Source of the DNA: Oscillospiraceae bacterium
GTDB taxonomy: Bacteria > Bacillota > Clostridia > Oscillospirales > Ruminococcaceae
DNA: 64,000 nt
Reading direction: 5' to 3'
Assembly (NCBI GenBank): GCA_031547945.1
Contig: JAVBRN010000002.1
Span: 15,736-79,735 of the forward strand
In this document: piece by piece, positions 6,913 through 44,787 of the stretch
Numbering within the stretch: position 1 is the first letter of the stretch
Layout of the letters: every line of letters starts with the position of its first letter
Notes under the pieces: model-generated
Seen by the model: the letters and a program-made list of their open reading frames with translations, nothing else
What the model was told of the DNA's origin: nothing
The model's database searches: none
Translations under genes and position numbers: made by a program

Positions 6913-7208
6913 GGAAAAGGTCTCCTTCCAGGGATCGGTTGGGGATCGCGTGATCTGCCAAGGCAGCATTCTATATAGGGGTAACACGCATCCATGCCAA
7001 CTGTGCTGTAATCGCGGTTGGCTTGCAGAGACAGCCGGACACCGCGCCGCTTTGCCGCGCCTTGTCCTACGAAGCTTCGCATTGCAAAAGCCATTCATTA
7101 CGCGCATCCTGCAAACGGGCCTGTTCTCGCGTTGTTGGCGAACACTCCGGTTGCGGTGTGCCGACAGTATGTCTTCGGGAATGCAGACGCGCGAGGCGCG
7201 CCCTCAGA

Positions 7209-13491: not shown

Positions 13492-15081
13492 CTACTCTGC
13501 GCGTTGCGCGTTGTTTCGTTCCAGATCTTTGGTTAGCTTATATTCGATGGAATCGACGAGCGCAATCCAGCTGGCCTCAATAATATCCTGCGACACACCG
13601 ACCGTCGACCACGATTCGGTGCCGTCGCTCGATTCGATGAGCACGCGCACGGTCGAAGCGGTTGCGCTTGCACTGTCCATCACACGTACCTTAAAATCGA
13701 TCAGGCGCATCTCCGCAACCTGCGGATAAAAGACCTCAAGCGCCTTGCGCAGGGCTTTGTCGAGCGCGTTGACCGGGCCCTGCCCTTCGGCCGCCGTGAC
13801 TTCGGTTTGGCCATCCACCATGATCTTGATCAGAGCGGAGGCCGACATGCCCTCGCGGTAGGGCTGCTCGCCGATGATTTTGAAGTTAACGAGTTCAAAA
13901 AAAGGTTTGTATTTGCCGAGCTGCTTGCGGATAATCAGAGAAAGTGTGCCCTCCGCGCCCTCGAATTGGTAGCCCTGATGTTCCAGATCTTTGATGCGCT
14001 GGATGATCTGCTCAGCCTCGGGTGAAGATTTGGTCAGCGAGGGATCGATCTTTTGCAGATGAGAAAGAATCGCCATGCGGCCCGCGACTTCGCTTGTCAA
14101 CAGTTTGCGCGCATTCCCGATTGTTTCGGGATCCAGGTGCTCAAAACTGACCGCCGCTTTCGCAACGCCGTCCACGTGCATGCCGCCTTTATGTGAGAAC
14201 GCACTGCGGCCCACATAGGGCATTTTATCGAGCAAAATAACATTTGCCACTTCGGCGATATAGCGCGCGGTCTGCGTCAGCAGGTGCATAGTTTCGTCGG
14301 GAATGCAGTGATAACCAAGTTTCAACTGCAGATTCGGGATAATTGTCGAGAGATTGGCGTTGCCGCAGCGCTCGCCATAGCCGATAAACGTGCCCTGCAC
14401 AAGCATTGCGCCCGCTTGTACCGCCAGAATCGAGTTGGCGACCGCAAGGCCGCTGTCGTTGTGGGTATGGATGCCGACGATGTCGCCGAAACAGCGGTAA
14501 ACTTCCGCGACGATATCCGCAATTTCATTTGGAAAGCAGCCGCCGCGTGTATCGCAAAGTGTCAGGTTGTCGGCGCCCGCATCGGCTGCTGCCTGCAGGC
14601 ACTGCATCGCGTAATCCGGGTTGGCTTGATAGCCATCAAAAAAGTGCTCGCCGTCAAAGATCACTTCTTTGCCTTGCGCTTTCAGAAACGAAATTGTGTC
14701 CGCGATCATCGCGAGATTCTCATCAAGCGTCGTGTGGATGATGTCGGTGACGTGGAAATCCCAGCACTTGCCAAAAATCGCGACGGCGGACGTCTTTGCC
14801 TGCAGAAGAGACTGCAGATTTTTGTCATCCGCGGCGCTGATGCCTGGGCGGCGTGTACTGCCGAAAGCGGTCAGCTTGGCATGCTGCAAATTTAAGGTTT
14901 GCGCGCGCTCAAAAAATTCAAGATCCTTTGGGTTGGAACCAGGATTGCCGGCCTCAATATAGCCGACACCTAGCGCATCGAGCGCCTGCACAATTTTTAG
15001 CTTATCCGCAACGGAAAAGGAAATCCCTTCCGCCTGCGCGCCGTCCCGCAGCATCGAATCAAAGATGGTGACAGTTTTCAC
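13492..15081 (-). CDS. cimA: (R)-citramalate synthase (LeuA-related, CimA type)
   Basis: ORF 13492..15120. N-terminus VKTVTIFDSMLRDGAQAEGISFS, HTHNDSGLAVAN, and a C-terminal LeuA-dimer/regulatory domain; about 529 aa. GTG start at 15081 with AAGGGGG upstream. The CimA-versus-LeuA call rests on length and N-terminal pattern and is an inference. Confidence 0.75.
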   Translation of the reverse strand: MKTVTIFDSMLRDGAQAEGISFSVADKLKIVQALDALGVGYIEAGNPGSNPKDLEFFERAQTLNLQHAKLTAFGSTRRPGISAADDKNLQSLLQAKTSAVAIFGKCWDFHVTDIIHTTLDENLAMIADTISFLKAQGKEVIFDGEHFFDGYQANPDYAMQCLQAAADAGADNLTLCDTRGGCFPNEIADIVAEVYRCFGDIVGIHTHNDSGLAVANSILAVQAGAMLVQGTFIGYGERCGNANLSTIIPNLQLKLGYHCIPDETMHLLTQTARYIAEVANVILLDKMPYVGRSAFSHKGGMHVDGVAKAAVSFEHLDPETIGNARKLLTSEVAGRMAILSHLQKIDPSLTKSSPEAEQIIQRIKDLEHQGYQFEGAEGTLSLIIRKQLGKYKPFFELVNFKIIGEQPYREGMSASALIKIMVDGQTEVTAAEGQGPVNALDKALRKALEVFYPQVAEMRLIDFKVRVMDSASATASTVRVLIESSDGTESWSTVGVSQDIIEASWIALVDSIEYKLTKDLERNNAQRAE

Positions 15082-15235
15082 GGAAGGGAACCCCCTTTTA
15101 AAGATTAAAATGATAAGCACTGGTCGTTAGACGTCGGCAGCACAAATGTACGAAATGCTGCCAACAGAAAGGAGTTAGGATTAATGACAGTTTTAGAGAC
15201 CTGTCACATTAAAAATACTGAAAAAAACAATCTCC

Positions 15236-17044: not shown

Positions 17045-17345
17045 TGGAAGGAATAAAAAATGCCTCTCCCAAGCTTTATGAAAAGCCAGGGACGAGGCAT
17101 ACTACCACGTGTTACCACCCTTGTTTCTTTTCCGCCTCGCGGCGAAAAACTCTGCAGGTTCCAACAAACCTTCGCCGATAACGGGGCGGCCCGTTTTGCG
17201 CTTAATGAGCTGTGCAGCCGTTCAGCGAAAAAGCTCGTGAGTGACGCATTGTCCGCACCTCTATCGGTTTGCACCAACCACCGACTCGCTGAAAATGATG
17301 CGCGGATATACTTGTCTCAGTCAACGCTGTAGCAGTGTTTAGAAA
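17045..17345 (-). promoter_or_regulatory. T-box leader (tRNA-sensing riboswitch) of the ilvN...ilvB cluster
   Basis: On the minus strand: a Stem-I-like CAGCGAGTCGGTGGTTGGTGCAAACCGATAGAGG, the T-box sequence GGGTGGTAACACGTGGTAG (plus-strand 17101-17120), then the terminator ATGCCTCGTCCCTGGCTTT..AAAGCTTGGGAGAGGCAT plus TTTTTTA. The specifier is ambiguous: GUC-A (Val) or CUC-A (Leu) in GCGUCACUCACGAGC. Confidence 0.8.
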
Positions 17346-17547: not shown

Positions 17548-17550
17548 GAT

Positions 17551-17675
17551 CAAGGTCAAGGGCAAGGTCAAGGGCAAGGTCAAGGGCAAGGTCAAGGGCA
17601 AGGTCAAGGGCAAGGTCAAGGGCAAGGGCAAGATCAAGGGCAAGGTCAAGGGCAAGGTCAAGGGCAAGGTCAAGG
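17551..17675. repeat. 12-bp minisatellite (CAAGGTCAAGGG)n, about 10.4 units
   Basis: Six perfect units, then a 6-bp half unit (CAAGGG), one variant (CAAGATCAAGGG), then nearly four more units. The minus strand reads CCCTTGACCTTG, so a TTGACC hexamer recurs every 12 bp. ORF 17541..17816 (SRARSRAR...) is its translation artefact. Confidence 0.95.
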
Positions 17676-17723: not shown

Positions 17724-19400
17724 TCAGTTCTGCTTGGCGAGCGGGTGCCCGGTGAGCGTCAGCATCCGGTTGAGCGCGCTCAGGACAGAGAGCAGCGAGG
17801 ATTTGCTGATGCTTGAGCTTACGCCGGCGCCAAAGAAGGAACGGCCGTTGTCGTCGTCAATCTGCAGGTAGGTGATCGCGCGGGATTTGGAGCCATATTC
17901 CAGCGAATGCTGGCTATAGTTGATAATTTCAAACCGCAAATCAAGCGATTCGCAGAGCGCCTCGCAGAACGCGCTGACGATGCCGTTCCCGTGCCCCTCA
18001 ATTTCACGCGCTTCGCCGTTGATGTTTATCGTTGCCGCCACCGAAAATGCGCCGTTGGTGGTTTCGTTGTACTTCACCAATTCGAGCGGTTGTTTGAGGT
18101 TGATATAGGTTTGGTCAAACAGTTCGTAAATCTGCGATGGAGACAAAACTGTTCCGGCGCGGTCGGAAAAATCGGTTGCGAGTGGGCCAAAATCCTGCTG
18201 CATCGCTTTTGGCATTTGAATGCTGTATTCCTGCTCAAGCACAAACGCCACACCGCCCTTGCCCGATTGGCTGTTCACGCGCACGATCTGGTTGTAGCTT
18301 CGACCGACATCGATTGGGTCGATGGGCAGATAGGGGACTTCCCAGTAGTCCGGGTGTTCCCGCAGCTTCGCGATGCCTTTTTTAATCGCGTCCTGGTGCG
18401 AGCCGGAAAACGCGGTAAACACAAGATCGCCCGCATATGGATGCCGCGGGTGCACCGCGAGCTCGGTGTAATTTTGATAGGTTTCAATGATGTCGTCGAT
18501 TTTGGTAAAATCGAGACTGGGATCGATGCCCTGTGTGTACATATTCATTGCGATTGTGAGGATATCAGCATTGCCGGTGCGCTCACCATTGCCGAACAGT
18601 GTACCCTCCACGCGCTGCGCGCCCGCGAGCATTGCTAGCTCGGACGCCGCGACGCCAGTGCCGCGGTCGTTGTGCGCATGCACGCTGACAATGACATTGT
18701 CGCGGCAGTGCAGGCAGCGGCTCATGTATTCAATCTGATCCGCATAGACGTTCGGCATCGTCATTTCCACGGTGTTGGGCAGGTTGATGATCACCTTACG
18801 GTCTGACGTTGGCTGCCAGACATCGATCACGGCGTTGCACACTTCGGCGGCGTAGTCCATTTCGGTGCCCGTAAAACTTTCGGGCGAATATTCAAACCAA
18901 AACCGCTCGCGGCCGTACTGTTCGGAAAGTTCATTCATGAGACCGGCGCCGTCAATCGCGATCTGCCTGATCTCGTCCTTGCTCTTGTTAAAAACGACAT
19001 CACGCTGCAACGTGGAGGTGGAATTATAAAGATGCACAACGGCCCGCTTGACGCCCTCGAGCGATTCGAACGTCCGTCGTATGATATGGTCGCGCGCCTG
19101 CGTGAGAACCTGAATGGTCACATCGTCCGGAATCAGGTTGCGCTCTATAAGCGTACGCACAAAGCTGAATTCGGTATCGGAAGCGGCCGGAAAACCGACC
19201 TCAATTTCCTTAAATCCAATCTCAACCAGCAGCCGAAAGAAATCCAATTTCTGTTCCAGCGTCATGGGATTGACGAGCGCCTGGTTGCCGTCGCGCAGGT
19301 CGACGCTGCACCAGATCGGCGCCTGGACAAGCTGCTGCATCGGCCAAGTACGGTCTGCAAGCTGGAAAAGCGGATAGGGTCGGTATTTTGTGAAATTCAT
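17724..19400 (-). CDS. leuA: 2-isopropylmalate synthase (long, LeuA type 2)
   Basis: 558 aa. N-terminus KYRPYPLFQLADRTWP...APIWCSVDLRDGNQAL, HAHNDRGTGVA, and a C-terminal regulatory domain. Confidence 0.93.
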   Translation of the reverse strand: MNFTKYRPYPLFQLADRTWPMQQLVQAPIWCSVDLRDGNQALVNPMTLEQKLDFFRLLVEIGFKEIEVGFPAASDTEFSFVRTLIERNLIPDDVTIQVLTQARDHIIRRTFESLEGVKRAVVHLYNSTSTLQRDVVFNKSKDEIRQIAIDGAGLMNELSEQYGRERFWFEYSPESFTGTEMDYAAEVCNAVIDVWQPTSDRKVIINLPNTVEMTMPNVYADQIEYMSRCLHCRDNVIVSVHAHNDRGTGVAASELAMLAGAQRVEGTLFGNGERTGNADILTIAMNMYTQGIDPSLDFTKIDDIIETYQNYTELAVHPRHPYAGDLVFTAFSGSHQDAIKKGIAKLREHPDYWEVPYLPIDPIDVGRSYNQIVRVNSQSGKGGVAFVLEQEYSIQMPKAMQQDFGPLATDFSDRAGTVLSPSQIYELFDQTYINLKQPLELVKYNETTNGAFSVAATININGEAREIEGHGNGIVSAFCEALCESLDLRFEIINYSQHSLEYGSKSRAITYLQIDDDNGRSFFGAGVSSSISKSSLLSVLSALNRMLTLTGHPLAKQN

Positions 19401-19842: not shown

Positions 19843-20150
19843 AAAAAAGCAATAACAAAAAAGCCTTCCGTCTCGATAAGAGACGAAAGGCGCTATGCTT
19901 TCCGCGGTACCACTCCAATTGCACAATATAACATTGTGCCCCTCTGCAGATACGGCGCAATGTATGCGCGATATCCTGTCCCATGCTAACGGCGGGCACC
20001 CGTCTTCACCTACTACAGCGCAAAACGCCTGTTCAGCAAGCCGCTCGGAGGCCAGTTCGGTTTCGCTGCGATGCTGCCTTGCACCAGCCGGCAACTCTCT
20101 GAAAACGCTTCCTGAAACGTACTATTCCTCGTCTTCGCGTTTGGTCATTG
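19843..20150 (-). promoter_or_regulatory. T-box leader upstream of leuA
   Basis: Minus strand: Stem I CAGAGAGTTGCCGGCTGGTGCAAGGC, T-box AATTGGAGTGGTACCGCGGAAAG (plus-strand 19898-19920), terminator CCTTTCGTCTC ttatc GAGACGGAAGG plus CTTTTTTGTT. The candidate Leu specifier is CUG or CUC in GAACUGGCCUCCGAGCGG. Confidence 0.85.
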
Positions 20151-20187: not shown

Positions 20188-20440
20188 GCAATTGCCACTT
20201 CGCTTGGCAATAGACAGTCTAAGGGAAACCAAAAGAAGAACACGGCTGGCCACAACGCATGGTTCTCTTATATCGGGAGCAACAACCATTGCAAAAGACG
20301 AAATCGCGCTGCGCCGAAAACGCATACATCGCTGCGCGGCTGTTCTCGATGTCACAGTCGTTTGCAAAAAGGAAAATGCTGCGAGATGAAACAAAGCGGC
20401 ATCATACTGAAACACAGGATCACAAAGAGTGACCAGTCGA

Positions 20441-20743
20441 CAGCGTGCAAAAAACATTTTATAAAAACGCGAGAGCGTCAAACTGCACAAGGCGTTCCGT
20501 TCGTCGACCTTTGTAATCCCGCCCCGGTTACCCGATTGACGCGGCGCTTCGCGCCCCGCCCCGGAGCGGAAATGACAGGTCAACGAGCGGGAACCAGCGT
20601 ATCAGCAATTTTCCGCACCGGCCGACTTTCTATTTTCTTCCAAGGGGGTTTGGGACGAAGCCCCAAGTGATTGGGCAGCTGTGTGCTAGGCAGTCGGCTA
20701 TTTTTGTGCGCTGCTTTCGCGGCCAGGGTTCTTTGACAGCCTG
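20441..20743 (+). repeat. full copy of the palindromic intergenic element (copy R2, MITE-like)
   Basis: Contains all shared blocks: GCGTGCAAAAAAC..., GCGTTCCGTTCGTCGACC, ATCCCGCCCCGG, TTGACGCGG..CTTCGCGCCCC, GGTCAACGAGCGGGAACCAGCGTA, TTTGGGACGAAGCCCCAAGTGATTGGGC, CGGCTATTTTTG and GGTTCTTTGACAGCCTG. Confidence 0.75.
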
Positions 20744-20910
20744 CAAGCAAATGCTTTTTTTGCAAAACACAAAACCTTGCGCAAGCAGCCCCATTTTCTC
20801 GCAGGGACAACTTGCGGGGAAAATTCGCACGCCCCGTCCGGCAATTGCAGCGTGGGAACGGACGGGGAGCTGCCCGATATGAATCGGAGTATCGCTAAAG
20901 GGGGGGCGTA

Positions 20911-21972
20911 TCAGCGCGTATATGCCGGAGCATCGAGCGGCATCGGGGTTGGATTTTGCAGCACCCAACGCACCGCAAGTTCGCACAGCCGCGCAGGTTC
21001 TTCGTCCCCGCTGCCGTCGCGCAGCGTATGGGTTAGGCGCGCAATCTCTTCCAAAGCTGCCGCATCCAGCGGCTTGCCTGTTGCGAGATAGCCGGGCAGG
21101 GCGGCGAGCATGGTTTTATAGTCCGCATCCCAGTTGCAGCCGCCGTTGTCTAAAAGTTCATGCGAGAGTTTGCCGGTTATGCGGATGACTTCGCCCTGCA
21201 CGGTTGCGGCGTGCCCGCTCGACGGGACAAGCAAGTCCCAAAGCTCGCCGTGCTGTGTCTGCCAGCGGTCGGTTTTTACCGTGATCGGCGCGCGGTCGTC
21301 GTGCATCGCCCGGCGCGGCACCGGTGGCACACCAAACAGCGCGTATACATGCGACAGGCCGGCGTCTGTGGCGTCCACATAGTCCGGATTATAACCGGCG
21401 CGGTGAAATTCAAATTCTGTGCCGACGCGTGTGACCGACTGCCGCATATCCGGCGTTATGGTATCGCCGGCCGCGAGCAGAAGGTCGGCCACTTCGGCCA
21501 TAGGTTTCAAATCGGCTGGCCGGCAATTAGCCAGGGCAAGCCCCAGCGGTGTGACGCCGCGGTTGTTCTTTGCGTGGACATTGGCGCCGTGGGCCAACAA
21601 CACCCGAACGGCCTCCGGTTTATAGGACGCCGCGGCCGCGTGCAACGGCGTGCTGCCATCATGGTCGACGGCTTCGATGTCCGCGCCCAGTTCCAAAAAC
21701 AGCGCCGCGTTTCCACACCAGCTGCGGGCATGCGCGTGCAGCGGCGTTTTGCCATAGTGATCCGCGGCGTTGATGTCGGCGCCCTGCGCCACAAGCCAGC
21801 GCACAAGTTCATCGGGTATCTGATGAAAACTGAGTGCTGTTGCCTTGCTGTAGCCGCCGCGCGCGTTAAGATCGCAAGTTTCAAAGACGGCTTTTAGCGC
21901 GGCGAGATCGCCAGCTTTGATCAGCGCGTCAAAGTTTTTCGGCAGGGTGATTCGCTGGTTCCCCATATGCAT
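20911..21972 (-). CDS. ankyrin-repeat protein with an uncharacterised C-terminal domain
   Basis: 353 aa. About four ANK repeats (GADINAADHYGKTPLHAHA; GADIEAVDHDGSTPLHAAA; GANVHAKNNRGVTPLGLA). I do not recognise the C-terminal ~170 aa. Confidence 0.8.
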   Translation of the reverse strand: MHMGNQRITLPKNFDALIKAGDLAALKAVFETCDLNARGGYSKATALSFHQIPDELVRWLVAQGADINAADHYGKTPLHAHARSWCGNAALFLELGADIEAVDHDGSTPLHAAAASYKPEAVRVLLAHGANVHAKNNRGVTPLGLALANCRPADLKPMAEVADLLLAAGDTITPDMRQSVTRVGTEFEFHRAGYNPDYVDATDAGLSHVYALFGVPPVPRRAMHDDRAPITVKTDRWQTQHGELWDLLVPSSGHAATVQGEVIRITGKLSHELLDNGGCNWDADYKTMLAALPGYLATGKPLDAAALEEIARLTHTLRDGSGDEEPARLCELAVRWVLQNPTPMPLDAPAYTR

Positions 21973-22001
21973 ACACTCCTATGGAAGCTGTATTGGCCAC
22001 A

Positions 22002-22586
22002 TTATTTTTTGTCTTGCAGACCCTTGCCCGCCAAGATCTGCTGGATACATTTTTGAATGCGCGCCTCCCGGGTTTTTGCCTGTTTGGGTTCTGCAAAATA
22101 ATAGAGATAGGCGCGCTGCCGACCCGGCGTTAACGCTTCGAACGCAGTTTTGAACGCAGGTTGTTCCGCCAAAATCGCCTGCAGTTCTTCCGGAACGGCG
22201 ATGTCAGAAGGCTCTTTTTGCGGCACCTCCAAACCGGCCTGTTCGATGGCGACCGCTGCTGCAATATACGCTTTTATCGTGGGCGCAAGCGCGGCAATGT
22301 CCGACTCGCCGGCAAACCGCAGCTGCCGCGCTGCCTGCACATTTTCAGTCTGCTGAATCAAAATCCCTTTGGGATCTTTTAGCAACGCGCCTTTTACAAA
22401 CAAAATCGCACAATAATCTTTAAAGTCCTGCAGAATCAGGACATTCTTGTCCATGACGGTATAACAGGGCTTTCCCCACTTTAAAGTTTCGGTTAGGCCG
22501 CATGTGCGTACAATCGCGCGCAGGCGCTCCAATTCCGCACGCCATTTTTTTACCGAACCAAAATAATCCTCTGCTGTGATCATCAC
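22002..22586 (-). CDS. DUF1801 / YdeI (OmpD-associated) family protein
   Basis: 194 aa. The C-terminal block FEALTPGRQRAYLYYFAEPKQAKTREARIQKCI is typical of the YdeI family. Confidence 0.7.
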   Translation of the reverse strand: MMITAEDYFGSVKKWRAELERLRAIVRTCGLTETLKWGKPCYTVMDKNVLILQDFKDYCAILFVKGALLKDPKGILIQQTENVQAARQLRFAGESDIAALAPTIKAYIAAAVAIEQAGLEVPQKEPSDIAVPEELQAILAEQPAFKTAFEALTPGRQRAYLYYFAEPKQAKTREARIQKCIQQILAGKGLQDKK

Positions 22587-22628
22587 GGGCGGCTCCTTTT
22601 TGTGTTTACATCGTGACGGTATAGATCG

Positions 22629-23645
22629 CTATTGATCTAGTGGAAGAGTCGAAAATATAGATCTATACGCGCCGTAGCCCTGCTTGTCCATCTCATCGTA
22701 CGGAATAAACCGCAGCGCGGCACTGTTGATACAATAACGCAGGCCGCCGCGGTCTTCGGGCCCGTCCGGAAAGACATGGCCCAGATGCGCGTTACTATTG
22801 CTGCCGCGCACTTCGGTTCGCCGCATGCCATAGCTCAAATCTTCGCGGCCAACGACAGCGGCCGGATCGATGGGTTTGGTAAAGCTGGGCCAGCCGCAGC
22901 CAGAATCGTATTTATCAACTGATAAAAAGAGTGGGTTGCCGCTGATGATATCGACATAAATCCCTTTGTCAAACACATCCCAATAGGCCCCGGTAAAGGG
23001 TGCTTCGGTGTCGCCGAGCTGGGTGACGCGATACTGTTCGGGTGTCAAACGACCGTGCAGTTCCTCGGTATTTGGCACCGGGGTTGTATGTTCGGACACT
23101 GCGAGATGTTGCAGTCCGGAAAAATCCACATGGCAATATCCGCCGGGATTTTTCTCCAGATAGTTTTGATGATACGCTTCCGCGGGATAAAAGCAAACAA
23201 GCGGCAGCAACTCGGTGACAACGGGATCGTCATGATACAGCTGCGCCGTAGCGAGCGCCGCTTCCAGAACGGATTTGTCTGCGTCGTCCACATAATAAAT
23301 ACCGGTGCGATACTGCGTGCCGACATCATTGCCTTGTCGATTGTATATGGTTGGATCAATAATCGTAAAAAACTGCTCGGTCAGGGAAGAAAGGCTGCAC
23401 TTTGTTGGGTCATATACAACGCGCACCGTTTCCGTGTGTCCGGTTGTTCCGGTGCACACTTGCTGGTAAGTTGGATTGGAAACGGTACCGTTTGCATAAC
23501 CGACCTCGGTTTCATACACGCCGGGAATCCGTGCCAAATAGGCTTGGACGCCCCAAAAACAACCGCCCGCAAAATAGACGGTTTTCAAGCTGTCGATTTG
23601 AAAGGTCAGCAACTTGTTTGGGTTTTCCGGCATAACATTGTTCAT
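22629..23645 (-). CDS. msrAB: bifunctional peptide-methionine sulfoxide reductase MsrA/MsrB
   Basis: 338 aa. MsrA motif [10 protein letters not shown] in the N-terminal half. MsrB motifs CGWPSF and RYCINS in the C-terminal half. Confidence 0.95.
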
Positions 23646-23982
23646 AAAATCATCTTCTTCCTATAATAGTATAGCAAAATATTAAAAGGAATCAGGATTT
23701 TCTTAAAAATCCGAGAAAAAACACGGCGCACGTTATGCTTCTTGGCAATGCTTACTGGTTGCTTCGCAGAATTGGGCTCGCGGCAAAGACTGCAGATGTG
23801 ATAGATCGGCAAACAACAAAATAACGATAAAGCTGGAACCGGTCTGTTTTATTTTTATGATATAGGAACGCCAAACAAAATTCAAATATGAAACGTATAT
23901 TTATTTCTATAAGTAGGCCTCGCGTTCCGCATTGACTTGACGGCTGTTTTTTGATACGATCGCACTAGAAAAACAAAAGGTT

Positions 23983-24660
23983 GTGATGAAAATGGAACCA
24001 TGGCTTATTATAGTCATTGTGATCTGTGTTGTGGCGATGATATGGCTTGCGAGCAGGCGTAAACCGGAAGAAGCTTACGAGGACGAAGCGGAGCTGTTTG
24101 AGACAGAGGAGGCCCCGCTTGAAGAGTACCGCGCGATGGTCGTTGAGATGCGCATTGAACCGAAAACTCGCACAAGTTACCAGGACAAAAGCGAGTTGAT
24201 GGCATTTCTGGTCGACTTTTTGCTCGAGGGCGAAAACGGGTTTCCCAAAACAGATGCATTGGACGCCGAACCCGACGAAGAAGACGATGCCGCAGCCGCG
24301 CTTTACGATGCGGAAGAGGACGACGAATGTGAGCGCCTTACCCTGGAAGTCCCGGCCGAAGTGTTTGAAGGTATTTCGCTGCACGAAGTAAACACGCTCG
24401 TACTGCAGGGCGACAGGTTTATCGATTTTGGCGACCGCTGTGTGGAACTGGTTGCTGGCAGCGAGGCGCAGGCAAAACGCAAAGCAAATGCGAAAAACGC
24501 GGATATGTTGGAAAAGGCGGGCGTCAAGCCGAGCACGCCCGCAAAAAAGAAGACATCGGCAACAAAAAGTGGCAAGCGGCAAGCTTCAACTACAAAAGCT
24601 TCCAACGCAAATACAAATCCAAACAAAATGCCGTCCGGCGGCACAAAGAAGAAATCTTAG
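23983..24660 (+). CDS. hypothetical membrane-anchored protein (acidic core, Lys-rich tail)
   Basis: 225 aa. N-terminal TM segment WLIIVIVICVVAMIWLA and low-complexity acidic and basic segments; no family recognised. The antisense ORF 23965..24582 is judged to be a shadow ORF. Confidence 0.55.
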   Translation: MMKMEPWLIIVIVICVVAMIWLASRRKPEEAYEDEAELFETEEAPLEEYRAMVVEMRIEPKTRTSYQDKSELMAFLVDFLLEGENGFPKTDALDAEPDEEDDAAAALYDAEEDDECERLTLEVPAEVFEGISLHEVNTLVLQGDRFIDFGDRCVELVAGSEAQAKRKANAKNADMLEKAGVKPSTPAKKKTSATKSGKRQASTTKASNANTNPNKMPSGGTKKKS

Positions 24661-24684
24661 AATGAACCCCGCAGAGTCTGCGGG

Positions 24685-24973
24685 CCGCGTGTCAAAAAAG
24701 TTCCCGATGCGAATCGTCAAACGGAACAACGCTTGTCGTCTGTCGACCGATGCCATCCCGTCCCAGCACCCGCTTGACGCAGGGCTTCGCCCCACACGCG
24801 GAGATGAGACAGGTCGACGAACGAAACCCAGCGTAGTATCGGCGTTCTGCATCCGGCGGCCTTTTATTTCCGTCAACGGTGTTTGGGGCGAAGCCCCAAT
24901 GTATTGGGCGGCAGGGGCGGATATTTTTTAGGCGACGGCTATTTTTTCGCCGACCGGGTTCTTTAACAGCCTG
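24685..24973 (+). repeat. full copy of the palindromic intergenic element (copy R3, reference copy)
   Basis: Same blocks as R2. The left-arm hairpin GGGCTTCGCCCC (24782-24793) and right-arm hairpin TTGGGGCGAAGCCCCAA (24883-24899) are reverse complements of each other. The copy is flanked on both sides by CCCCGCAG...CTGCGGG hairpins (24667-24684 and 24975-24994). Confidence 0.8.
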
Positions 24974-25051
24974 ACCCCGCAGTATTCTGCGGGGCTTGTG
25001 TTATACCGAAACGCGCACTGTGGCAAAGCGAGCGAAAAAGGGGAAAGAGAT

Positions 25052-25489
25052 GTGAAAGTGATTGTCGAGCAGTCGCTGGACTGCAAAGAGGCAGAGGTGA
25101 AAATTACCTGCGGCCTGCCGGATCATCGTCTGAAGCGTTTGATTGACTACGTGCGGCAGTATGCGTTTTCCATTACCGCAATAAAAGACAAGCAGGCAAT
25201 TTCTGTGGCGCTGGAGGATGTTTATTACTTTGACAGTGTCGACAACAAAACGTTTCTGTATGTAAAAAGAGATGTATATCAATGCGACCAGAAGCTGTAT
25301 CAACTCGAAGCGCTGCTGCGCGATACGCCGTTTGTGCGCATCAGCAAAAACTGCATTCTCAACACGGCAGTTGTCGTGCGTGTGCGGGCGTTGCTCAGCG
25401 GACAGATGGAAGTGAGCTTGAACAACGGGGAAAAGAATGTGGTATCCAGACGTTATTTACAACTGTTTCGCGAAAAATTTGATGTGTGA
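25052..25489 (+). CDS. LytTR-family DNA-binding protein
   Basis: ORF 24998..25489. The LytTR pattern YYFDSVDNKTFLY...FVRISKNCILN...NGEKNVVSRRY is present. GTG start at 25052 after AAAGGGGAAAGAG. Confidence 0.8.
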   Translation: MKVIVEQSLDCKEAEVKITCGLPDHRLKRLIDYVRQYAFSITAIKDKQAISVALEDVYYFDSVDNKTFLYVKRDVYQCDQKLYQLEALLRDTPFVRISKNCILNTAVVVRVRALLSGQMEVSLNNGEKNVVSRRYLQLFREKFDV

Positions 25490-25498
25490 GGTGAGAAC

Positions 25499-25945
25499 AT
25501 GAAACGGTTAAAGCCCATAGTTATTATCACCTGCGTCAGTTTTACAGTGGAACTCTTGCTGTATGTTGCAATTGCGCTGTTGGTTTTCAAAGCAGAATTA
25601 ACAGGATTGGCGGTGTATGCGCTCTTCGCAATGTCGCTGGGAATCGCTTTGCTTCTCAGCGTTGTGGACTGGCTGGGAGAACATGTTGAACTTTCTTTGT
25701 TTGTGGATAATCTGTTGCGCATTGCTGTTTGCTATGTGGTCGTGTTGGGGATTGGCTTTGCTGTTGGGATGTTCGCGTTTTCCTGGATGGCGCTGGTATA
25801 TGTCAGCCCCATTTTGCTGCCGGTTTACGTGGTGACCTATCTGGTTTCCTATTTTACGATTAAAGAATATACAAACAGTATCAATGCCGCGCTAGTACAC
25901 AGGCGCTCTGCAGCGCAAACAGAAGATTCTGTCGAAAATAAATAG
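25499..25945 (+). CDS. DUF3021-like small membrane protein (usual LytTR partner)
   Basis: 148 aa with 4 predicted TM segments, lying 9 nt after the LytTR gene. The family call rests on this context and topology and is an inference. Confidence 0.6.
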   Translation: MKRLKPIVIITCVSFTVELLLYVAIALLVFKAELTGLAVYALFAMSLGIALLLSVVDWLGEHVELSLFVDNLLRIAVCYVVVLGIGFAVGMFAFSWMALVYVSPILLPVYVVTYLVSYFTIKEYTNSINAALVHRRSAAQTEDSVENK

Positions 25946-26195
25946 AGAAAAAAACGCGATACAAAGACGACCGGCGATATGTTACCCGCATGCGCTGCCC
26001 GAATGGATATGGGACTGCGTCCAAACCGCTATACTGGAACATGAAAGGGCGCGGTTGTCCGACAAACGAGCGCTTCTATTCGCCGCCCTTTTACGTCGTT
26101 TTGGGTATGGAGTAAAGCTGTATAAAGAATCCGGACGGGTGGCGCGGGTTATAGAGAGCGTCGAACGTGTTCTTTACACAGAATGATCGGATCAA

Positions 26196-26487
26196 GACTT
26201 TTTTGACAGCCGAAACCGCAGGAGGCAAAAGCGCACAAAAATATCCGACGGCTTAAACTACCCACTCCTTGCCGCCCGGTCAACTGGGGCTTCGCCCCAA
26301 ACCCCATTGCGGAAAAAGGCCGTCGGATGCGGGGAGTGCCGATTCTACGCTGTTCCGCCAGATGATCTGCATTTCATTTCCGGGGTGTGGGGCGAAGGCC
26401 CACGTCAATCAAATGGATGGGGCGGGATGGCATGCGTTGACGAACGAAATTCCTTATGCATTTTGACGTTCTCGGGTTTTATATGAG
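26196..26487 (-). repeat. full copy of the palindromic intergenic element (copy R4, inverted relative to R3)
   Basis: GCGCACAAAAATATCCGACGGC..CCTTGCCGCCCGGTCAACTGGGGCTTCGCCCCAAACCCC..GGCCGTCGGATGCGG..CTACGCTG..GGGGTGTGGGGCGAAGGCCCACGTCAA..GGGGCGGGATGGCA..GTTGACGAACGAA..TTTTGACG. This is the reverse complement of the R2/R3 block order. Confidence 0.75.
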
Positions 26488-26499
26488 GATTGACATATT

Positions 26500-26530
26500 G
26501 AAACAGCCGACGGCATTGCCGTCGGCTGTT
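26500..26530. terminator. bidirectional intrinsic terminator
   Basis: AAACAGCCGACGGC att GCCGTCGGCTGTTT: a perfect 14-bp stem with A and T runs at its ends. Confidence 0.7.
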
Positions 26531-26652
26531 TGCCGCTTACCCGCACTTTTTTGCATCTTGAACTGAGAAACCTGCCGCTTACCGCAAAAAGTGTTGTGGT
26601 TCTCCCTTGGTCTGCTAAGATACGCATATCAGCAACAAAGGAGTGCAGAAAT

Positions 26653-32239: not shown

Positions 32240-32493
32240 GAAAAACCGAAAATGCAGCATGCAGCGGTTTTGTCTTGTCATGATGGAGACACCGTTAGCA
32301 CAGTAGAATCGATCCATACTCATAAACATGTGTTTGATAGTATCGATACGACATGAGGGAGACTACTGTCGTTGAAATGTCGGCACAGTAGTATGCAGTA
32401 TTCCTTTTCCAACAGCAAACGGCTGACAACATTGCCAAACAAGCCGACGGGGATATTCGGAAATTGTAGTCATAAGCATATACGTTTGACGCG

Positions 32494-32632
32494 GCGTGTC
32501 ATACGCTTATATAAAACGCGAGATCGAAAAAATGCACAAAGCGTTCCGTTCGTCGACCGATGCTATCCCGCCCCGGCCGTCGGCTATTTTTGCACTTTTT
32601 TCACTGCCTGGAGTTGTTTGACTACAAACAGC
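32494..32632 (+). repeat. internally deleted copy of the palindromic element (copy R5)
   Basis: The left end (GCGTGTCA..ATAAAACGCGAGATCG..CACAAAGCGTTCCGTTCGTCGACCGATGCTATCCCGCCCCGG) joins directly to the right end (CCGTCGGCTATTTTTGCAC...GTTGTTTGACTACAAACAGC). The central ~170 bp is absent. Confidence 0.7.
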
Positions 32633-33058
32633 TCAAAAGAAGTTCGAACAGAAATTGCGCCGGGCGATTGCCCGGCGCTTTGCTTTGGCAATGAGCTGAT
32701 TGACAGAGCGATACAAGCAGGTTGTCAGCACCAAACTGGCGCAAATATTGGCGTCGCCGGTGCGATCGTCTCTATAAAGCCATCATTTTCTAGCACAACC
32801 GGCAGACTCTTTTGTGCGTATACGGACGACAGGGTGGCGAAATTGCGAGAAGAATTGTTGAAGAATGCCCGCGCGCGAGGCTTCTTCCAGGGTTTACCGG
32901 AAACCGCGCCGCAACAACAGAGCAAAGTGTGCATTGGTCAACAGAAATCGGTCTTGCTTCCCGATCTGCCTTAGCTATCGAATGGTGCTGCATAAGGTAT
33001 TTTCAAAACATGGCAATCGGAACATCACAAAGGGAACTGACAGCAGAAAGGAAAAGCG

Positions 33059-37651: not shown

Positions 37652-38016
37652 GCATGGTCTTTTTTGGGAAATACGCAGGAGGAACGGCGCTAATATGGCC
37701 ACAAGGTAAAGGATAAAGCGCTGAAAAAAAGCGAAACTGAAAAAGGTGAGGCAGGGTGTTAACGCCACAAACAATAAAATTCCGCACAAAAAGCAAAAAT
37801 TTTTTTCATCGCTATTGTCATTTAATAATAAAAGTCTTTTATCAGTATTAAATATAATAAAACAGTCGAAAGATGAGGAGAGTGGTGCAATCTATGTGAT
37901 CGGCTTGTTATTGATTTTGATATGATATTAGAAATAGCGACGACCAAAATTGACCAAATTCGACAAAAGCAAACAAAACTCAACACTTGTACGTGTTAAC
38001 CGAAAAAGGAAACGTC

Positions 38017-38544
38017 ATGAAGCAGATACTTGCTCTCGCGGCTACCATGATGTTGCTGTTTGTGTTTGTGCAGTCCAACCAATCTGCCGGGTTTTCCGCA
38101 AATACAGTTCGGTCAGGTATAAAAGCGCAAGATGATACAGCGACAATTTTTCTGCTGCCAAACGGCGCGGCAAGATATGAAACCGGCACCGGATGCCAAG
38201 CTCGAAAAATGACGGCTACTTCCGAATCCGACCTGTTTTCTGAGGACAATCTTAACGAAGAGAGACAGTATCGGGAACAGCAGAGAACTGAGCGGGACAA
38301 ACGACTAAAAGATGCGTTTGATAATTATGGTGGAGCGACAGAGGATCGCAGTGATGCGTTACAGAACAGAGTCGCCGAGCTTTTTGCAACGCCTTCGACG
38401 TATTACGGAAATAGCCGTGTTGCGGAACAAGCGAACACGACTGCAACCGTGTTATTGGTCGTCCTATTCTTAACGCTTGCGGCGGCGAGTTACCTTGTGA
38501 CGCTGTCTGTCCGTAAGGCAATGCAGAAGAGGCAGGAAAAGTGA
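38017..38544 (+). CDS. EssA-like T7SSb membrane protein (tentative)
   Basis: ORF 37987..38544; start MKQILALAATMMLLFVFV at 38017 after AAAAAGGAAAC. It has an N-terminal signal/TM segment and a C-terminal TM segment (VLLVVLFLTLAAASYLVTL) followed by a basic tail. It sits directly before esaB-essB-essC, as essA does in Staphylococcus. The call rests on position and topology only. Confidence 0.4.
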   Translation: MKQILALAATMMLLFVFVQSNQSAGFSANTVRSGIKAQDDTATIFLLPNGAARYETGTGCQARKMTATSESDLFSEDNLNEERQYREQQRTERDKRLKDAFDNYGGATEDRSDALQNRVAELFATPSTYYGNSRVAEQANTTATVLLVVLFLTLAAASYLVTLSVRKAMQKRQEK

Positions 38545-38771
38545 TGTACATCACAGTGACAATCACGACAACGGAACAGCAATACCACATTCAAATTGAC
38601 AACAAACAGCGTGTTGCTGCAGGCATTGAAATTTTGGCAGCCACCGGGAAGACGACCGCGAAGCCAGTGGACTATTACCGATCGAAAATGCAAAAACGTA
38701 TTGTCAGTGCCTATAATACTTTTGAGCAAGAACACATCCAAAGCGGCGATGAGCTTACATTGCTGGTTTAA
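38544..38771 (+). CDS. esaB: EsaB/YukD-like ubiquitin-fold T7SS protein
   Basis: 75 aa. The pattern YITVTI...IQID...I...GDELTLLV resembles YukD/EsaB. The start overlaps the upstream stop (GTGATG). Confidence 0.65.
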   Translation: MYITVTITTTEQQYHIQIDNKQRVAAGIEILAATGKTTAKPVDYYRSKMQKRIVSAYNTFEQEHIQSGDELTLLV

Positions 38772-38785
38772 AACCACAAAGGGAA

Positions 38786-40000
38786 TTGGCAGTGGGAAAA
38801 CAAATTGAAAGAACGTATTTGAATGGCGAATCAAGGCTAAAACCAGATCAACGCCATTTTTTAACCTATCCAAATGCACATCTTGTGCCGTGTGCACTCA
38901 AACAGGGCAAGGATGGATTCACACTGACGTTTGATACCGAAGGGCTCGTTCCCTTCACGATGATGCGTGAAGTAGAAGAGGCTACGGAGATTTATCGCGC
39001 CTTGGCGAATATCGCGGCGTTTCAATCTTTACAACAGGAATATGCGTTTATCCTTTCGCCGGACAACTTGATGATAGACATCAATCTTGTGCCCAGGATT
39101 TTAGAACGGGACGCAGAGGATGGGCCGCAGCCCTTCGTAGAAATGTATAAAGCGCTCATTGGGACAACAGTTCTGCCGACATATACCTATCAGGATTTTC
39201 TAAACGGCGGCGAAGACTTCTATGGGAAAAACCAGTTCTTAGCGTCGATTCGTGATTTAAAGACAGTGGAAGAAATTGAAACCACATTGTTGGACAAATA
39301 TTTTGCGTGTAGGGAACGCGACCAGAAAAAACTCGTGCGCGTCCGCAAAAGCACGCTGAAATTCAGCCGAATTTTTATGCCGATCCTGGCGCTTTTAACC
39401 GTGCTGGCGCTTGTCGCGGCTGGCTGGCTATTTTTTTATCGCTTTCCGTTCGATGAGGCTGTAACGGCTGCGTATGCTTTTTATGAACAATATGATTATT
39501 ATAACGTACAAAAGCAATTGGCGCCCTATACATTGGAACAAATTCCATATGATGTCAAATATATTCTGGCGCGATCTTACATTTACACAGATGCCATATT
39601 AGAACAGCAATATCGGGAAAATGTGTTGGAAACAATCGATACAAATACCGATGAACGGCAGCTTAATTACTGGATTGAGGTCGGCCGCGAACAGTATCGC
39701 AATGCCATCGATTATGCGGAACAGCTGCAAGATGACCCATTGCTGCTGTACGCTCTGGTACTTTACCGAGATTGGACGGAAAAGGATACCGAGCTATCTG
39801 GCGCCGACAAAACAGCCTTGCTCACGGAATTAGATGCGCGCATCAAGCAAATGGATGAGGCGAAGAAGGCGCGGGAGAAAGCCGAGGAAGAGGCAAAGCA
39901 ACAAGAAGAACAGCAGACACAGAACGACGAAGAAGAGCAAGAACAGAACGACGAAGAAGACTCAAATAGCTCTGAAAACGCAGAAAGTAATTCGCAATAA
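38786..40000 (+). CDS. essB: T7SSb membrane component EssB/YukC-like
   Basis: 404 aa. An N-terminal ~200-aa pseudokinase-like region, a single central TM segment (IFMPILALLTVLALVAAGWLFFY), an extracytoplasmic domain and an acidic low-complexity tail. Confidence 0.7.
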   Translation: MAVGKQIERTYLNGESRLKPDQRHFLTYPNAHLVPCALKQGKDGFTLTFDTEGLVPFTMMREVEEATEIYRALANIAAFQSLQQEYAFILSPDNLMIDINLVPRILERDAEDGPQPFVEMYKALIGTTVLPTYTYQDFLNGGEDFYGKNQFLASIRDLKTVEEIETTLLDKYFACRERDQKKLVRVRKSTLKFSRIFMPILALLTVLALVAAGWLFFYRFPFDEAVTAAYAFYEQYDYYNVQKQLAPYTLEQIPYDVKYILARSYIYTDAILEQQYRENVLETIDTNTDERQLNYWIEVGREQYRNAIDYAEQLQDDPLLLYALVLYRDWTEKDTELSGADKTALLTELDARIKQMDEAKKAREKAEEEAKQQEEQQTQNDEEEQEQNDEEDSNSSENAESNSQ

Positions 40001-40027
40001 GGGTAACCATCAGCGCGGTATAGAATA

Positions 40028-43000
40028 ATGTTTGCAACAGAACAAAAGACGGCCCCGGTTAATACGGGGAAGCCAACAGCATATAAAATTCTCCTGTTTC
40101 GAGGAAACCGGTATGTCGAGACGCAAGTGGTTGATGCAATGCGGCTTGGCACAGGCGCGCGTGTTTTTTTGCAGGACAACACGGTAAAGCTCAATGACGA
40201 GACATGGAAACTATACAATTACATGAAATTGCCGTCGGGCGACAAAGCCATGTTGTTGCCGACCGAGGGGAAAATCTTTTCTATTCTCAACCGGCCTGTC
40301 ATCCGGATTGGGAAAGACCGGGCCGACGATATCTTTTTGAAATACTCCAAAGCTTCCCTTGTTCTGTGTGATGCTGTTTTGACGATTTACGAGGGGACGG
40401 TTTATTTAGATGGCGTATTGCGGGAACCTGGCCGCTATTTGCTGCAGCCGGGCGACACCATTTTTCTGGACAGCACCGAGATTTGTTTTGGGGGCGATTT
40501 TGTCACCTGCATTGGCGGTGTGTATCAATGCCTTTTGAATGAGTACTTTTCCAAACGGCAGCTGGCAGAGGATTTCCCAAACTACGCGCGTTCGCCGCGC
40601 ATTATCAAGCGGGAGCCGACGGCAACGGTAGAACTAAAAGATCCGCCAAAAAAAGAGGCGCCCAAAAAGGGCGCGTTGGTTCGGTTGATTCTTCCGCCGC
40701 TCGTCATGATGTCGTTGACCATAGGCGTCAGTTTGATGATGGGGCGCGGTATTTATATGATTGTGATGGCCGCCGGAACATTGGTTTCGACGGTTGTATC
40801 GGTCACGAACTATTTTCAGGATAAAAAAGACCGCAAACAAAAAGAGACCGAGAGCGCGACCTCTTATCAAGAATATCTGCTGCGGCAGCGCAAGATGCTT
40901 CACCGGTTTCGCAGCCAGTTTATCGACGCGAAAACGTACCACAACCCATCTGTACAAGAGATTGCGGAGTTGGTGGACCGATATTCCAACCGCATTTATG
41001 AGCGTCGGTCGAGCGACGCGGACTTTTTGCAGATCTCCTTGGGATCGGCCGACTGTGAACCGTCCTACAAAGTGCAATGTAAATTAGACGATTTTGAAGC
41101 CAACAAAGATCCGCTTTATCTGGAAATGCTGGATGTATACAAATCGTTTACGATGATTCGGGATATACCAAAAGTAATCGATCTGAAAAATGCACATCTA
41201 GGGATTGTCGGAGAATCAAGTTTCATACATACGCAATTAAAAGCACTTCTTGCGCAGCTTGCTTTTATGCACAGCTATCGCGATATCGAAATTGTGCTGT
41301 TGACCGATCCGCAGTCGCGCGAAGAATTTGAATGGGTGCGCTGGTATCCGCATTGCCGCATCGCAAGCATTAACGTCTCCGGTCTGATCAGCAGTGAGAA
41401 CCAGCGCGACCAGGTATTGGGCAATATTTCCCAAATGCTCAAACAGCGCAAACAATATTTGGACGAATCAAAACGGGACGCGCGCTTTACACCGCACTAT
41501 GTTTTTGTCATCGACAACCCTAATTTGGTGTTGAGCCACAGCATTATGGAGTTCCTGCAGGAAGAAGATACAGAACTTGGGTTCAGTATCATCTATACTA
41601 CACATCTGTTGTCCAACCTGCCGGAAAATATCAAAACGATTTTGATGCTTGATACCAAGGACAAAGGCACCCTGCTGTTGGACGAAGGACTCCTTGTCGA
41701 CCAGCCAATTCAATTGCATAACATAGAAAATGTTGATTTGGAGGCGATGTCGCGCGCGTTGGCGCCCCTGATTCACAATCAGGGAGTCACAACGCAAATT
41801 CCGGAGAGCATCTCTTTCTTTGAACTGTACAATGTCAAGCATCCAACCGAACTGCCGATCGAGCGTCTGTGGGCGAGCAACGCTTCCCACAAGTCATTGG
41901 CGGTGCCGCTCGGCGTGCGCGGCAAAGATGACATCGTCTATCTGAATTTGCATGAAAAATCTCACGGGCCGCACGGCTTGGTTGCCGGCACAACCGGCTC
42001 GGGAAAATCTGAGATTTTGCAGTCCTTTATTCTGTCGCTCGCGGTCAATTTTCATCCGCATGAGGTCGGATTTCTGCTGATTGACTACAAAGGCGGCGGC
42101 ATGGCAAACCTGTTTAAAGATCTGCCGCATCTGCTTGGCACGATCACCAACCTGGATGGCAGCGAGAGCATGCGCGCGCTCGCCTCTATCAAAAGCGAGC
42201 TGGCGCGCCGACAGCGTATTTTTAACGAGCACGACGTGAACGCAATCAACCAGTATACAAAACTGTTTAAAGAGGGCAAAGCAAAAGAGCCGCTGCCGCA
42301 CCTGTTTTTGATTTCTGATGAGTTTGCCGAACTGAAAAAAGAACAACCGGAGTTTATGCGCGAGCTGGTCAGCGCCGCGCGCATTGGCCGAAGCCTCGGG
42401 GTACACTTGATTTTGGCGACGCAAAAACCGTCCGGTGTTGTAGATGACCAAATCTGGAGCAACTCCAAGTTTAAGCTGGCACTGAAAGTGCAAAATGAGT
42501 CGGACAGCCGCGAGGTTATCAAAACACCTGATGCCGCGCGTATCATCCAACCGGGGCGCGCGTATCTGCAGGTGGGCAATAACGAGATATATGAATTGTT
42601 CCAGTCTGCCTGGAGCGGCGCAGCCTATAGCAAGGAGCATGAGGACCGCGCGTTTGACAGCCGCGTCTACCTGGTCAACGACCTGGGGCAGGGCGTGCTG
42701 CTCAATGACGATCTGAGCGATATGGCAAGCGCGGAGGACACGGGCGTGACGCAGCTGGATGCAACGGTTGCGGAGATACAGAAAGTGTATTTGCGCAAAC
42801 GCGCGGTAGCGGTGGCAAAGCCATGGCTGCCGCCGCTGGAGGAGCAGATTGTCTCTCCGCACATCGACGCGGTGCGCGCGGGCGACGTCGGCCAGCTGCG
42901 CAAACAAGACATGACCGTGCAGCTTGGCAGGGTGGATTTGCCGGAAAGCCAGTCGCAAATAGAATATGTCCATGATTTCTTTAAGGACGGGAACCTGGCG

Positions 43001-44456: not shown

Positions 44457-44493
44457 CCGAAGAAGACCGCGGCAGCGCTGCGGTCTTCTTCAG
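44457..44493 (+). terminator. hairpin after essC (weak terminator)
   Basis: GAAGAAGACCGC ggcagcgc TGCGGTCTTCTTC with no clean U-tract. It abuts repeat copy R6. Confidence 0.45.
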
Positions 44494-44787
44494 CTGTTCA
44501 AAAAATCCGGGTAGCGAAAAAGGTGCGCCAAAATAGCCGACGGCCGAAAGATGCCACCCCTGCCGCCCAATCAATTGGGGCTTGGCCCCAAACTCCATAA
44601 AAGAAAAAAGGCCGTTGGGTGCAGGCAACTGCCGAAACTACGCTCGTTTTCGCTCGCTGCCTTGTCATGTTACCTCCGGCGTGTGGGGCGAAGCCCCCTG
44701 CGTTAATCGTGTGGCTGGGGCGGGATTGCCAAGGCCGACGAGCGGAATGCCCTGGCAGTTTGACATTCCACGATTTTTCCACGGGGG
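44489..44787 (-). repeat. full copy of the palindromic intergenic element (copy R6)
   Basis: CAGCTGTTCAAAAAATCCGGG..CCAAAATAGCCGACGGCC..CCCCTGCCGCCCAATCAATTGGGGCTTGGCCCCAAACTCC..GGCCGTTGGGTGCAGG..CTACGCTCG..GCGTGTGGGGCGAAGCCCCCTGCGTTAA..GGGGCGGGATTGCC..GCCGACGAGCGGAA..GTTTGACATTCC. Confidence 0.75.

Follow-up and report, generated by a model that had tools for sequence, protein, structure and literature searches.

Several families of mobile or repeated DNA offer points of comparison for a ~290-bp element that recurs along a 64-kb stretch of an Oscillospiraceae bacterium genome (contig JAVBRN010000002.1, assembly GCA_031547945.1), a stretch that we call, at its full length, the window. IS1397 and ISKpn1 insert into the loops of repetitive extragenic palindromic (REP) sequences, whereas the class C group II introns of bacteria enter immediately downstream of intrinsic terminators. 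REPINs and bacterial interspersed mosaic elements (BIMEs) are REP doublets mobilised by REP-associated tyrosine transposases (RAYT/TnpA-REP) (PMC3337134, PMC6006769), and group 1 RAYTs have been reported in Clostridia (PMC5581495). Reference features of prokaryotic MITEs (transposable elements of the miniature inverted-repeat type) can be taken from Chunjie of Geobacter, QMITE1/2 of Coxiella and Correia of Neisseria (PMC10969869). SPRITE, BOX and RUP are small repeats of Streptococcus pneumoniae, as their description (PMC3049150) is relayed in PMC10969869.

Here we describe the element, its copies and their surroundings. Our favored reading, at a probability of about 0.6, is that of a mobile repeat which is non-coding, non-autonomous and restricted to one lineage: selfish DNA which would have spread in this genome and would now be old and decaying.

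Results

A repeat family at seven loci

A first-pass annotation of this DNA had listed a multi-copy ~290-bp repeat at seven places. All seven were recovered by blastn with positions 24640-25010 as query against the window (E 1e-4 to 3e-32), and an nhmmer profile built from the copies scored the listed ones at E 2e-77 to 7e-11 and extended the list by one or two degenerate copies. The interspersed repeat family is real and statistically solid. It comprises 8-9 copies at seven loci, namely five near-full copies, one right module on its own, one internally deleted copy and one or two degenerate copies, and covers ~3.1% of the window (Table 1). Copy sizes range from 129 to 309 bp, and pairwise identity is 57-75% in full-length alignments and 70-78% in local blastn alignments. 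At 50-58% GC, compared with 52.7% for the window, the copies are not AT-rich.

The window is an ordinary chromosomal region of a Bacillota/Clostridia-like organism, carrying an ilv-leu cluster, msrAB, a pyr operon, type VII secretion genes (YukC/EssB, EssC), ABC transporters and a cold-shock gene. That all copies are intergenic, as had been claimed, was upheld: their neighbors are ordinary chromosomal genes, and because the open reading frames (ORFs) overlapping copies matched 0 Pfam families and share no reading frame, we take the copies to be intergenic and non-coding. No conserved small ORF is common to the copies. The copy at 20441 may serve as an example of the setting. The stop of an ankyrin-repeat gene (20911, minus strand) bounds it on one side and a weak hairpin (20418-20434) on the other, upstream of the T-box/leuA promoter, and it is antisense to both neighboring genes.

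An orthologous empty site

Two relatives, L030 (GCA_016841205.1) and L031, carry the gene order LytTR, DUF3021-like, ABC ATPase, ABC permease, as does the window. In both relatives the spacer between the second and third genes is 155 bp long and runs from the stop through 10-25 nt to a terminator hairpin, a promoter and a ribosome-binding site (RBS). The corresponding spacer in the window measures 707 bp (25946 to about 26652). Its final ~150 bp, from the palindrome at 26501 to the ABC start at ~26653, is colinear with L030 and L031 and includes CTTTT(T/C)TGCATCTTG, a TAAGAT -10 region and an AAAGGAG RBS. The surplus of ~555 bp, between the DUF3021 stop and the hairpin, is exactly two tandem copies of the element (25946-26200 and 26212-26503). 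The C-terminal tail of the DUF3021 protein is 4-12 residues longer in the window than in the relatives and overlaps the end of the degenerate copy.

Because two relatives hold the orthologous empty site, we read the copies at the DUF3021-ABC site as inserted. This comparison of sequences shows that the element is inserted DNA, at least at one locus (the 26212/25946 site). The family also includes decay products of the sort that mobile repeats typically leave: besides the tandem pair, a copy that has lost its interior but keeps both ends, another reduced to a single module and one from which 55 nt are deleted. Orientation relative to neighboring genes is mixed, the 24685 copy being sense and the 20441 and 26212 copies antisense. 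A composite transposon, in which two copies would flank the LytTR-DUF3021 pair, was considered and rejected, as the relatives have the same gene order without copies.

Association with terminator hairpins

Hairpins were classed as strong when their stem was perfect, 6 bp or longer, and held no fewer than 4 GC pairs. One end lies 0-5 nt from such a hairpin in four of the five full copies, against a background in which 8.2% of intergenic positions are inside a strong hairpin or no more than 10 nt from one. The fifth full copy (20441) lies 6 nt from a weaker hairpin. The right terminus of the 44493 copy is 1-3 nt from the hairpin at 44459-44491, and the left terminus of the 62452 copy is 5-10 nt from the hairpin at 62694-62717.

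Near-identical hairpins had been noticed on both sides of the 24685 copy, and they proved to belong to a 27/28-nt imperfect direct repeat (24666-24692 and 24974-25001) with a score of 17, compared with a maximum of 13 in 500 shuffles. Its left member follows immediately on the stop codon (24658-24660) of the upstream gene. When the flanks of the copy are joined, a normal intrinsic terminator of that gene is restored. Weaker flank repeats that include hairpin sequence accompany the copies at 44493 and 62452 (p about 0.07-0.08 each), and the other copies have none.

Distribution

As far as the collections searched show, the family is confined to this lineage. Plasmid and phage records gave no match to the element in blastn searches, and GTDB species genomes, JGI metagenomes and viral contigs returned only chance matches to the short hairpin pattern (pattern scans with an nhmmer check). 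An alignment of two spurious element ORFs, used as query against a collection of 5.8 billion proteins, produced 8 word candidates, 0 of which scored. The nearest PyrB and LytTR relatives (L026 and L028-L033, ~60 kb of contigs), with amino-acid identities of about 80% for PyrB and 65-73% for LytTR, hold 0 copies. The only other sample was the Logan run SRR23967709. Its contigs match the window exactly, and one ends inside a copy.

Anatomy of the element

The ~290-bp unit consists of weak termini and two modules that are weakly reverse complementary, each of which contains one imperfect palindrome rich in GC. The ends that the copies share read 5'-TGTCA(AAAAAG)... and ...(CTTT)GACA-3', with a consensus of G.TGTCAAA.AA..CCC at both ends. 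Terminal hexamers, which had been assigned to both ends, occur as TTGACA/TTGACT at some of them but not at others. The left module has a helix, CGTTCGTCGACC/GGTCGACGAACG, around the C-rich block ATCCCGCCCC and the hairpin GGGGC-TTC-GCCCC, and the right module has a helix, CCGACGGCC/GGCCGTCGG, around the hairpin GGGGC-GAA-GCCCC and a G-rich block, followed by TATTTT. With its foot, the palindrome reads GTGT-GGGGC-GAA-GCCCC in one orientation and the complement, with a TTC loop, in the other; as its foot, the left unit has GTGT (read as complement) and the right unit G(G/T)GTTT. Both hairpins are present in all four intact copies, with centers 102-108 nt apart. The GC-rich hairpins with GAA/TTC loops described earlier are thus present, and only inside copies, with 0 occurrences elsewhere in the window. 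The two hairpins and a few internal blocks are the best conserved part of the element, and conserved sequence reaches ~100 nt beyond each palindrome.

The proposal that the two halves are reverse complements of each other holds weakly. The right module matches the reverse complement of the left weakly, each copy gives an opposite-strand profile match (nhmmer, E 7e-8 to 2e-3), and the one strong complementary stretch between the halves, GGGCTTCGCCCCACAC / GTTTGGGGCGAAGCCC, is 94% complementary. Identity of a copy to its own reverse complement, however, is ~53-59% and clearly exceeds shuffles in only 2-3 of 5 copies. A palindrome maintained over the whole element within copies was rejected, since complementarity within a copy is not above that between copies.

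Table 1. Copies of the element and associated features, in window coordinates
Feature	Position	Strand	Remarks
Full copy, reference	24685-24973	+	left module 24712-24830, right module 24828-24950
Left module of 24685 copy	24712-24830	+	helix CGTCTGTCGACC/GGTCGACGAACG, hairpin GGGCTTCGCCC
Right module of 24685 copy	24828-24950	+	hairpin GGGGCGAAGCCCC, plus GACGGCTATTTTTT
Termini of 24685 copy			TGTCAAAAAAG...CTTTAACA
Left member of direct repeat	24666-24692	+	terminator-like hairpin CCCGCAGAGTCTGCGGG (24668-24684)
Right member of direct repeat	24974-25001	+	hairpin CCCCGCAGTATTCTGCGGGG (24975-24994) then CTTGTGTTAT, terminator-like
Full copy	20441-20743	+	blastn, nhmmer
Full copy	26212-26503	-	left terminus abuts 31-bp palindromic terminator 26501-26531
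Palindrome, 14-bp perfect stem	26501-26531		orthologous terminator of LytTR-DUF3021 operon
Degenerate copy	25946-26200	-	nhmmer E 4e-6; tandem with 26212 copy; absent from first-pass list; starts with TGTCAAAAAAGTC; far end overlaps last codons and stop of DUF3021 gene
Full copy, divergent left end	44493-44801	-	between convergent genes essC and pyrI
Near-full copy	62452-62688	-	~55 nt deleted, right hairpin lost
Right module only	4939-5100	-	homology begins at element center; between cspA (4528-4740) and ilvB (5230-7107)
Internally deleted copy	32492-32620	+	left ~100 nt joined to right ~45 nt at CCCCGG|CCGTCGGC
Possible degenerate copy	62156-62342	+	nhmmer E 4.5e-4 only; absent from first-pass list

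Other features of the window

Directly upstream of the 20441 copy lies a gene for a 353-aa ankyrin-repeat protein (20911-21972, minus strand). The internally deleted copy is followed, 36 nt downstream, by a strong terminator (GCGCCGGGCGATTGCCCGGCGC then TTTGCTTTGG, 32657-32678) that lacks an annotated gene upstream of it. Paired with the promoter-like TTGACG...TATATA at 32476-32505, this terminator could delimit a ~170-nt transcript.

The branched-chain amino-acid cluster holds two T-box leaders on the minus strand, at 17085-17333 and 19876-20144 (Rfam, 123 and 95 bits), which precede its ilvH/ilvC and leuA parts, as well as a second HMGL/LeuA-like gene (13492-15120) that is possibly a citramalate synthase. 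An array of ~21 TCAAGG hexamers (83-88% matches, 17550-17675) lies between the leuA-like gene (17724-19400, minus) and the T-box leader at 17085-17333 (minus). On the transcribed strand the repeated unit reads CCUUGA. An RNA-binding regulator could use the array as a series of binding sites, or the array could be a mere microsatellite.

In the pyr operon, the 582-bp gap between the pyrE-like gene and pyrF contains a tandem repeat (47514-47946) with a period of ~125-130 bp and no Rfam match, counted as 2.2 copies at 81% by TRF and as ~3.4 by self-blastn; the same gap is ~150 bp in the relative L028. The pyrE-like gene between pyrF and pyrB is missing in L029 (810-bp gap, 2518-3328, compared with 9191-10001 of L028), a difference that points to pyr operon rearrangement in this group.

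The type VII (WXG100) genes span 38786-44425, with YukC/EssB at 38786-40000 and an FtsK/SpoIIIE-type EssC of 1465 aa at 40028-44425; small ORFs lie upstream of YukC/EssB (37987-38771). A stretch of 41% GC at 93-2491, compared with 53% for the window, may be foreign or defense-related and holds a KAP-family P-loop NTPase (93-1523) and a 281-aa ORF without a Pfam family. A 603-aa fusion of FHA with FtsW/RodA/SpoVE (57834-59645), found also in L028, stands beside a transpeptidase gene (59494-60999).

Discussion

The sequences show that the element went into intergenic DNA, typically 0-11 nt from the hairpin of an intrinsic terminator, either in the interval between stop codon and hairpin or just after the hairpin, and that copies then degraded through point changes, internal deletions and the loss of a module. 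Hairpin-forming terminators would be the preferred landing site. Movement would depend on an enzyme encoded elsewhere in the genome, for which a DDE transposase recognizing the TG...CA ends is one candidate. The alternative candidate is a single-strand-DNA enzyme of the HUH/Y1 type, of the RAYT/IS200 kind, which might recognize the two conserved hairpins; this option fits the conservation better than DDE because the hairpins are best kept and the termini worst. Effects on neighboring genes, including a longer 3' untranslated region, stray -35 hexamers and the right-module hairpin with its T-run, would be a by-product.

Several observations weigh against such a mobile and selfish origin. MITE termini have been described as conserved (PMC10969869), the opposite of the element here, whose termini are its least conserved windows. 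When the left end was compared with the reverse-complemented right end as a test for terminal inverted repeats (TIRs), which in MITEs measure about 4-30 bp, p was 0.03-0.15 in three copies and the remaining copies did not rise above shuffles. No short target-site duplication could be recognized beside the TGTCA/TGACA termini in the copies of the window. The earlier finding that the window holds no transposase was reproduced, with neither a transposase nor a Y1 enzyme (Y1_Tnp) among the ~60 window ORFs scanned with Pfam. The 27/28-nt flank repeat is atypically long and is not explained by a standard transposase. There is no sign of recent activity, because the copies are only 57-75% identical, and the 8-9 copies studied all come from a single 64-kb window. 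Finally, conservation is blocky, its observed variance being reached in 0 of 2000 permutations, which could mean that internal blocks are under selection.

This last point also bears on a rival explanation, unlikely but the likeliest of the rivals: that the copies are REP/BIME-type elements retained by the host, whose GC palindromes and hairpin with T-run would act as protein-binding sites, as stabilizers of mRNA 3' ends or as back-up terminators. Conservation does reside in internal blocks (the two GC hairpins, GCCGTCGGCTATTT and TGCCATCCCGCCCC) and not in the termini, and the GCCGTCGG.TATTT block is kept in 7 of 7 copies, both deletion derivatives included. Moreover, copies sit at gene 3' ends beside terminators, and the palindromes are ~105 bp apart in every full copy, in a layout like that of REP doublets with TT and AA centers (PMC3337134). 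Yet the nearest relatives lack the family at the same and at other loci, so that no conserved host role is visible, and modules and hairpins have been freely lost (4939, 32492, 62452). No compensatory change maintains pairing, the mini-copy at 32492 has no stable fold (z 0.19), and the blockiness itself may partly stem from poor alignment of the indel-rich ends.

The flank repeat, in turn, invites the thought of a large Clostridia-specific counterpart of the REPIN-RAYT system. A domesticated Y1/HUH enzyme would move the 290-bp unit with its two hairpins in the form of single-stranded DNA, and the unit would home to the hairpins of intrinsic terminators and duplicate them when it inserts. We consider this distinctly unlikely. 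If it were true, the 27/28-nt repeat at 24685 and the weaker ones at 44493 and 62452 would be explained, no terminator would be lost to the host gene, and the element would have insulation to its left and right.

A family of small-RNA genes, or another structured non-coding RNA, seems very unlikely. Here a promoter would lie at the left end, the right hairpin and U-run would form the transcript end, and the C-rich block AUCCCGCCCC would be a seed directed against ribosome-binding sites. That block is indeed conserved, a stem followed by TATTTT near the right end is kept in all copies, and three copies (20441, 26212 and 32492) have a -35/-10-like pair reading inward (TTGACG/TCGACA, ~17 nt, TATAAA/TATATA). 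The pair is missing, however, in 24685, 62452 and 44493, and where present it was not called by the consensus scan because its -10 lacks the final T. A promoter of the element's own was likewise rejected, as the scan called none inside copies and the -10-like hexamers are without the final T. Nor is there a conserved small ORF to add to the case.

The first-pass annotation had also thought the element structured-RNA-like, and this did not hold. Rfam gave no match to the element at the gathering threshold and no credible match up to E = 10 across 20300-26600. Folding energies are ordinary: single-copy z-scores were -2.0 and -1.7 for the two strands, modules ranged from -1.8 to +1.2, and the mini-copy at 32492 scored 0.19. 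The RNAalifold consensus is weak: it amounts to -11.5 kcal/mol across 321 columns, and its covariation term is positive (+1.99). Structures predicted from one copy were kept at 62-64% in the other copies, whether local or long-range, and equally on both strands, neither of which is favored.

It had further been suggested that a long-range stem varies between copies while largely keeping its pairing. In that stem 78.7% of cells pair, which is the level given by sequence conservation alone. Pairing reaches 81.6% of cells in the four best candidate helices, compared with 26-47% in slid registers, and because it is so far above slid registers we regard the hairpins as real features of the ancestral sequence. 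Shuffling of partners among sequences nevertheless left a mean of 81.7% paired against the 81.6% observed; the covariation score was 0.104 against a shuffle mean of 0.103, and 2 pairs changed on both sides where 2.1 were expected. Pairing thus persists only as far as sequence persists, which suggests decaying repeated DNA and not an RNA under structural selection. Taken together, Rfam, fold z-scores, RNAalifold, covariation and strand symmetry lead us to reject a structured RNA on present evidence.

That recombination or duplication on a local scale (segmental duplication, gene conversion), and not transposition, left the copies behind, as the tandem pair at 25946-26503 and the long direct repeat around the 24685 copy might suggest, is extremely unlikely, with copies at seven or more unrelated loci, in both orientations and between unrelated flanks, and no flanking sequence duplicated along with copies in the self-comparison of the window.

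Two further candidates were rejected. A type I toxin-antitoxin system or small protein does not fit, for although a GGAG...ATG motif is present, the frames differ and the unrelated products range from 10 to ~75 aa. A group II intron fragment was rejected on the short length of the element and the lack of an Rfam intron match (domain V/VI).

If insertion is the right account, a previously undescribed non-autonomous repeat family makes up ~3% of this chromosome stretch and lies in 3' untranslated regions beside terminators. The lineage that carries it is Clostridia-like and hardly sampled, being represented by one NCBI contig and one sequencing run. The repeat breaks short-read assemblies, as the Logan contig that ends inside a copy illustrates, creates spurious ORFs and could be used as a strain marker. 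Its main oddities are the tight association with terminator hairpins, one of them duplicated, and that the palindromes, not the ends, are apparently the recognized part. It is a fairly ordinary kind of bacterial repeat, though a new family; its scientific interest is limited, and it has no bearing on a long-standing open question.

Comparison with known systems

Set beside MITEs, the element is similarly short (<500 bp), non-coding, multi-copy and intergenic, ranges from full-length to truncated and internally deleted copies, and could fold into stem-loops. It shares inverted similarity at the ends with TG...CA termini, and an empty orthologous site marks its insertion. The part of the earlier MITE-like assignment that stands is therefore inserted DNA, as seen in that empty site, the deletion derivatives, the tandem pair and both orientations. 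The classic hallmarks are the weak part: the terminal repeats are short, weak and least conserved, a short target-site duplication cannot be seen, and the base composition is not AT-rich. Unlike MITEs, the element has no related insertion sequence known and lands beside terminator hairpins.

The likeness to REPINs lies in the interior. Both have two inverted GC-rich imperfect palindromes, with a TT(C) center on the left and a (G)AA center on the right, and the ~105-nt distance between the palindromes of the element is near the 107-112 nt of GII REPINs in Pseudomonas fluorescens SBW25. The palindrome is preceded by a foot, GTGT, that is short and conserved; palindromes are the best conserved part, the whole unit can fold back, and copies are extragenic, at gene ends; the single-module copy resembles a REP singlet left by decay. 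However, at ~290 bp the element is three times larger, and REPs form the ends of REPIN units of ~90-120 bp. Its foot, GTGT or GKGT(TT), is similar to but not the canonical GT[AG]G (PMC6006769), its palindrome never occurs alone outside copies in the window, and there is no RAYT, a gene that REPIN systems have as a single copy between the same REPs, among the window ORFs. REPIN populations are also usually much more uniform than 57-75% identity.

SPRITE, BOX and RUP, as far as the relayed description of them goes, are likewise small interspersed repeats of Bacillota that cluster and insert beside or into one another, and SPRITE shares a resemblance to rho-independent terminators. They show no sequence similarity to the element, are shorter (about 100-200 bp) and have other architectures, and the terminator hairpins here belong to the target and not to the element.

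Insertion tied to GC-rich stem-loops or terminators also recalls IS1397/ISKpn1 and the class C group II introns, but the element is non-coding and far too short for an intron, and, unlike IS1397/ISKpn1, it inserts beside the hairpin, on either side, and not in the loop. A palindrome-associated transposable element (PATE) derived from IS200/IS605, which would have subterminal hairpins of one orientation at its two ends and no inverted repeats, was rejected: the hairpins here lie ~100 nt from the ends and in inverted orientation (TTC and GAA loops). What emerges is a new family of non-autonomous interspersed repeats, which works like a MITE or a REPIN and is a proven member of neither.

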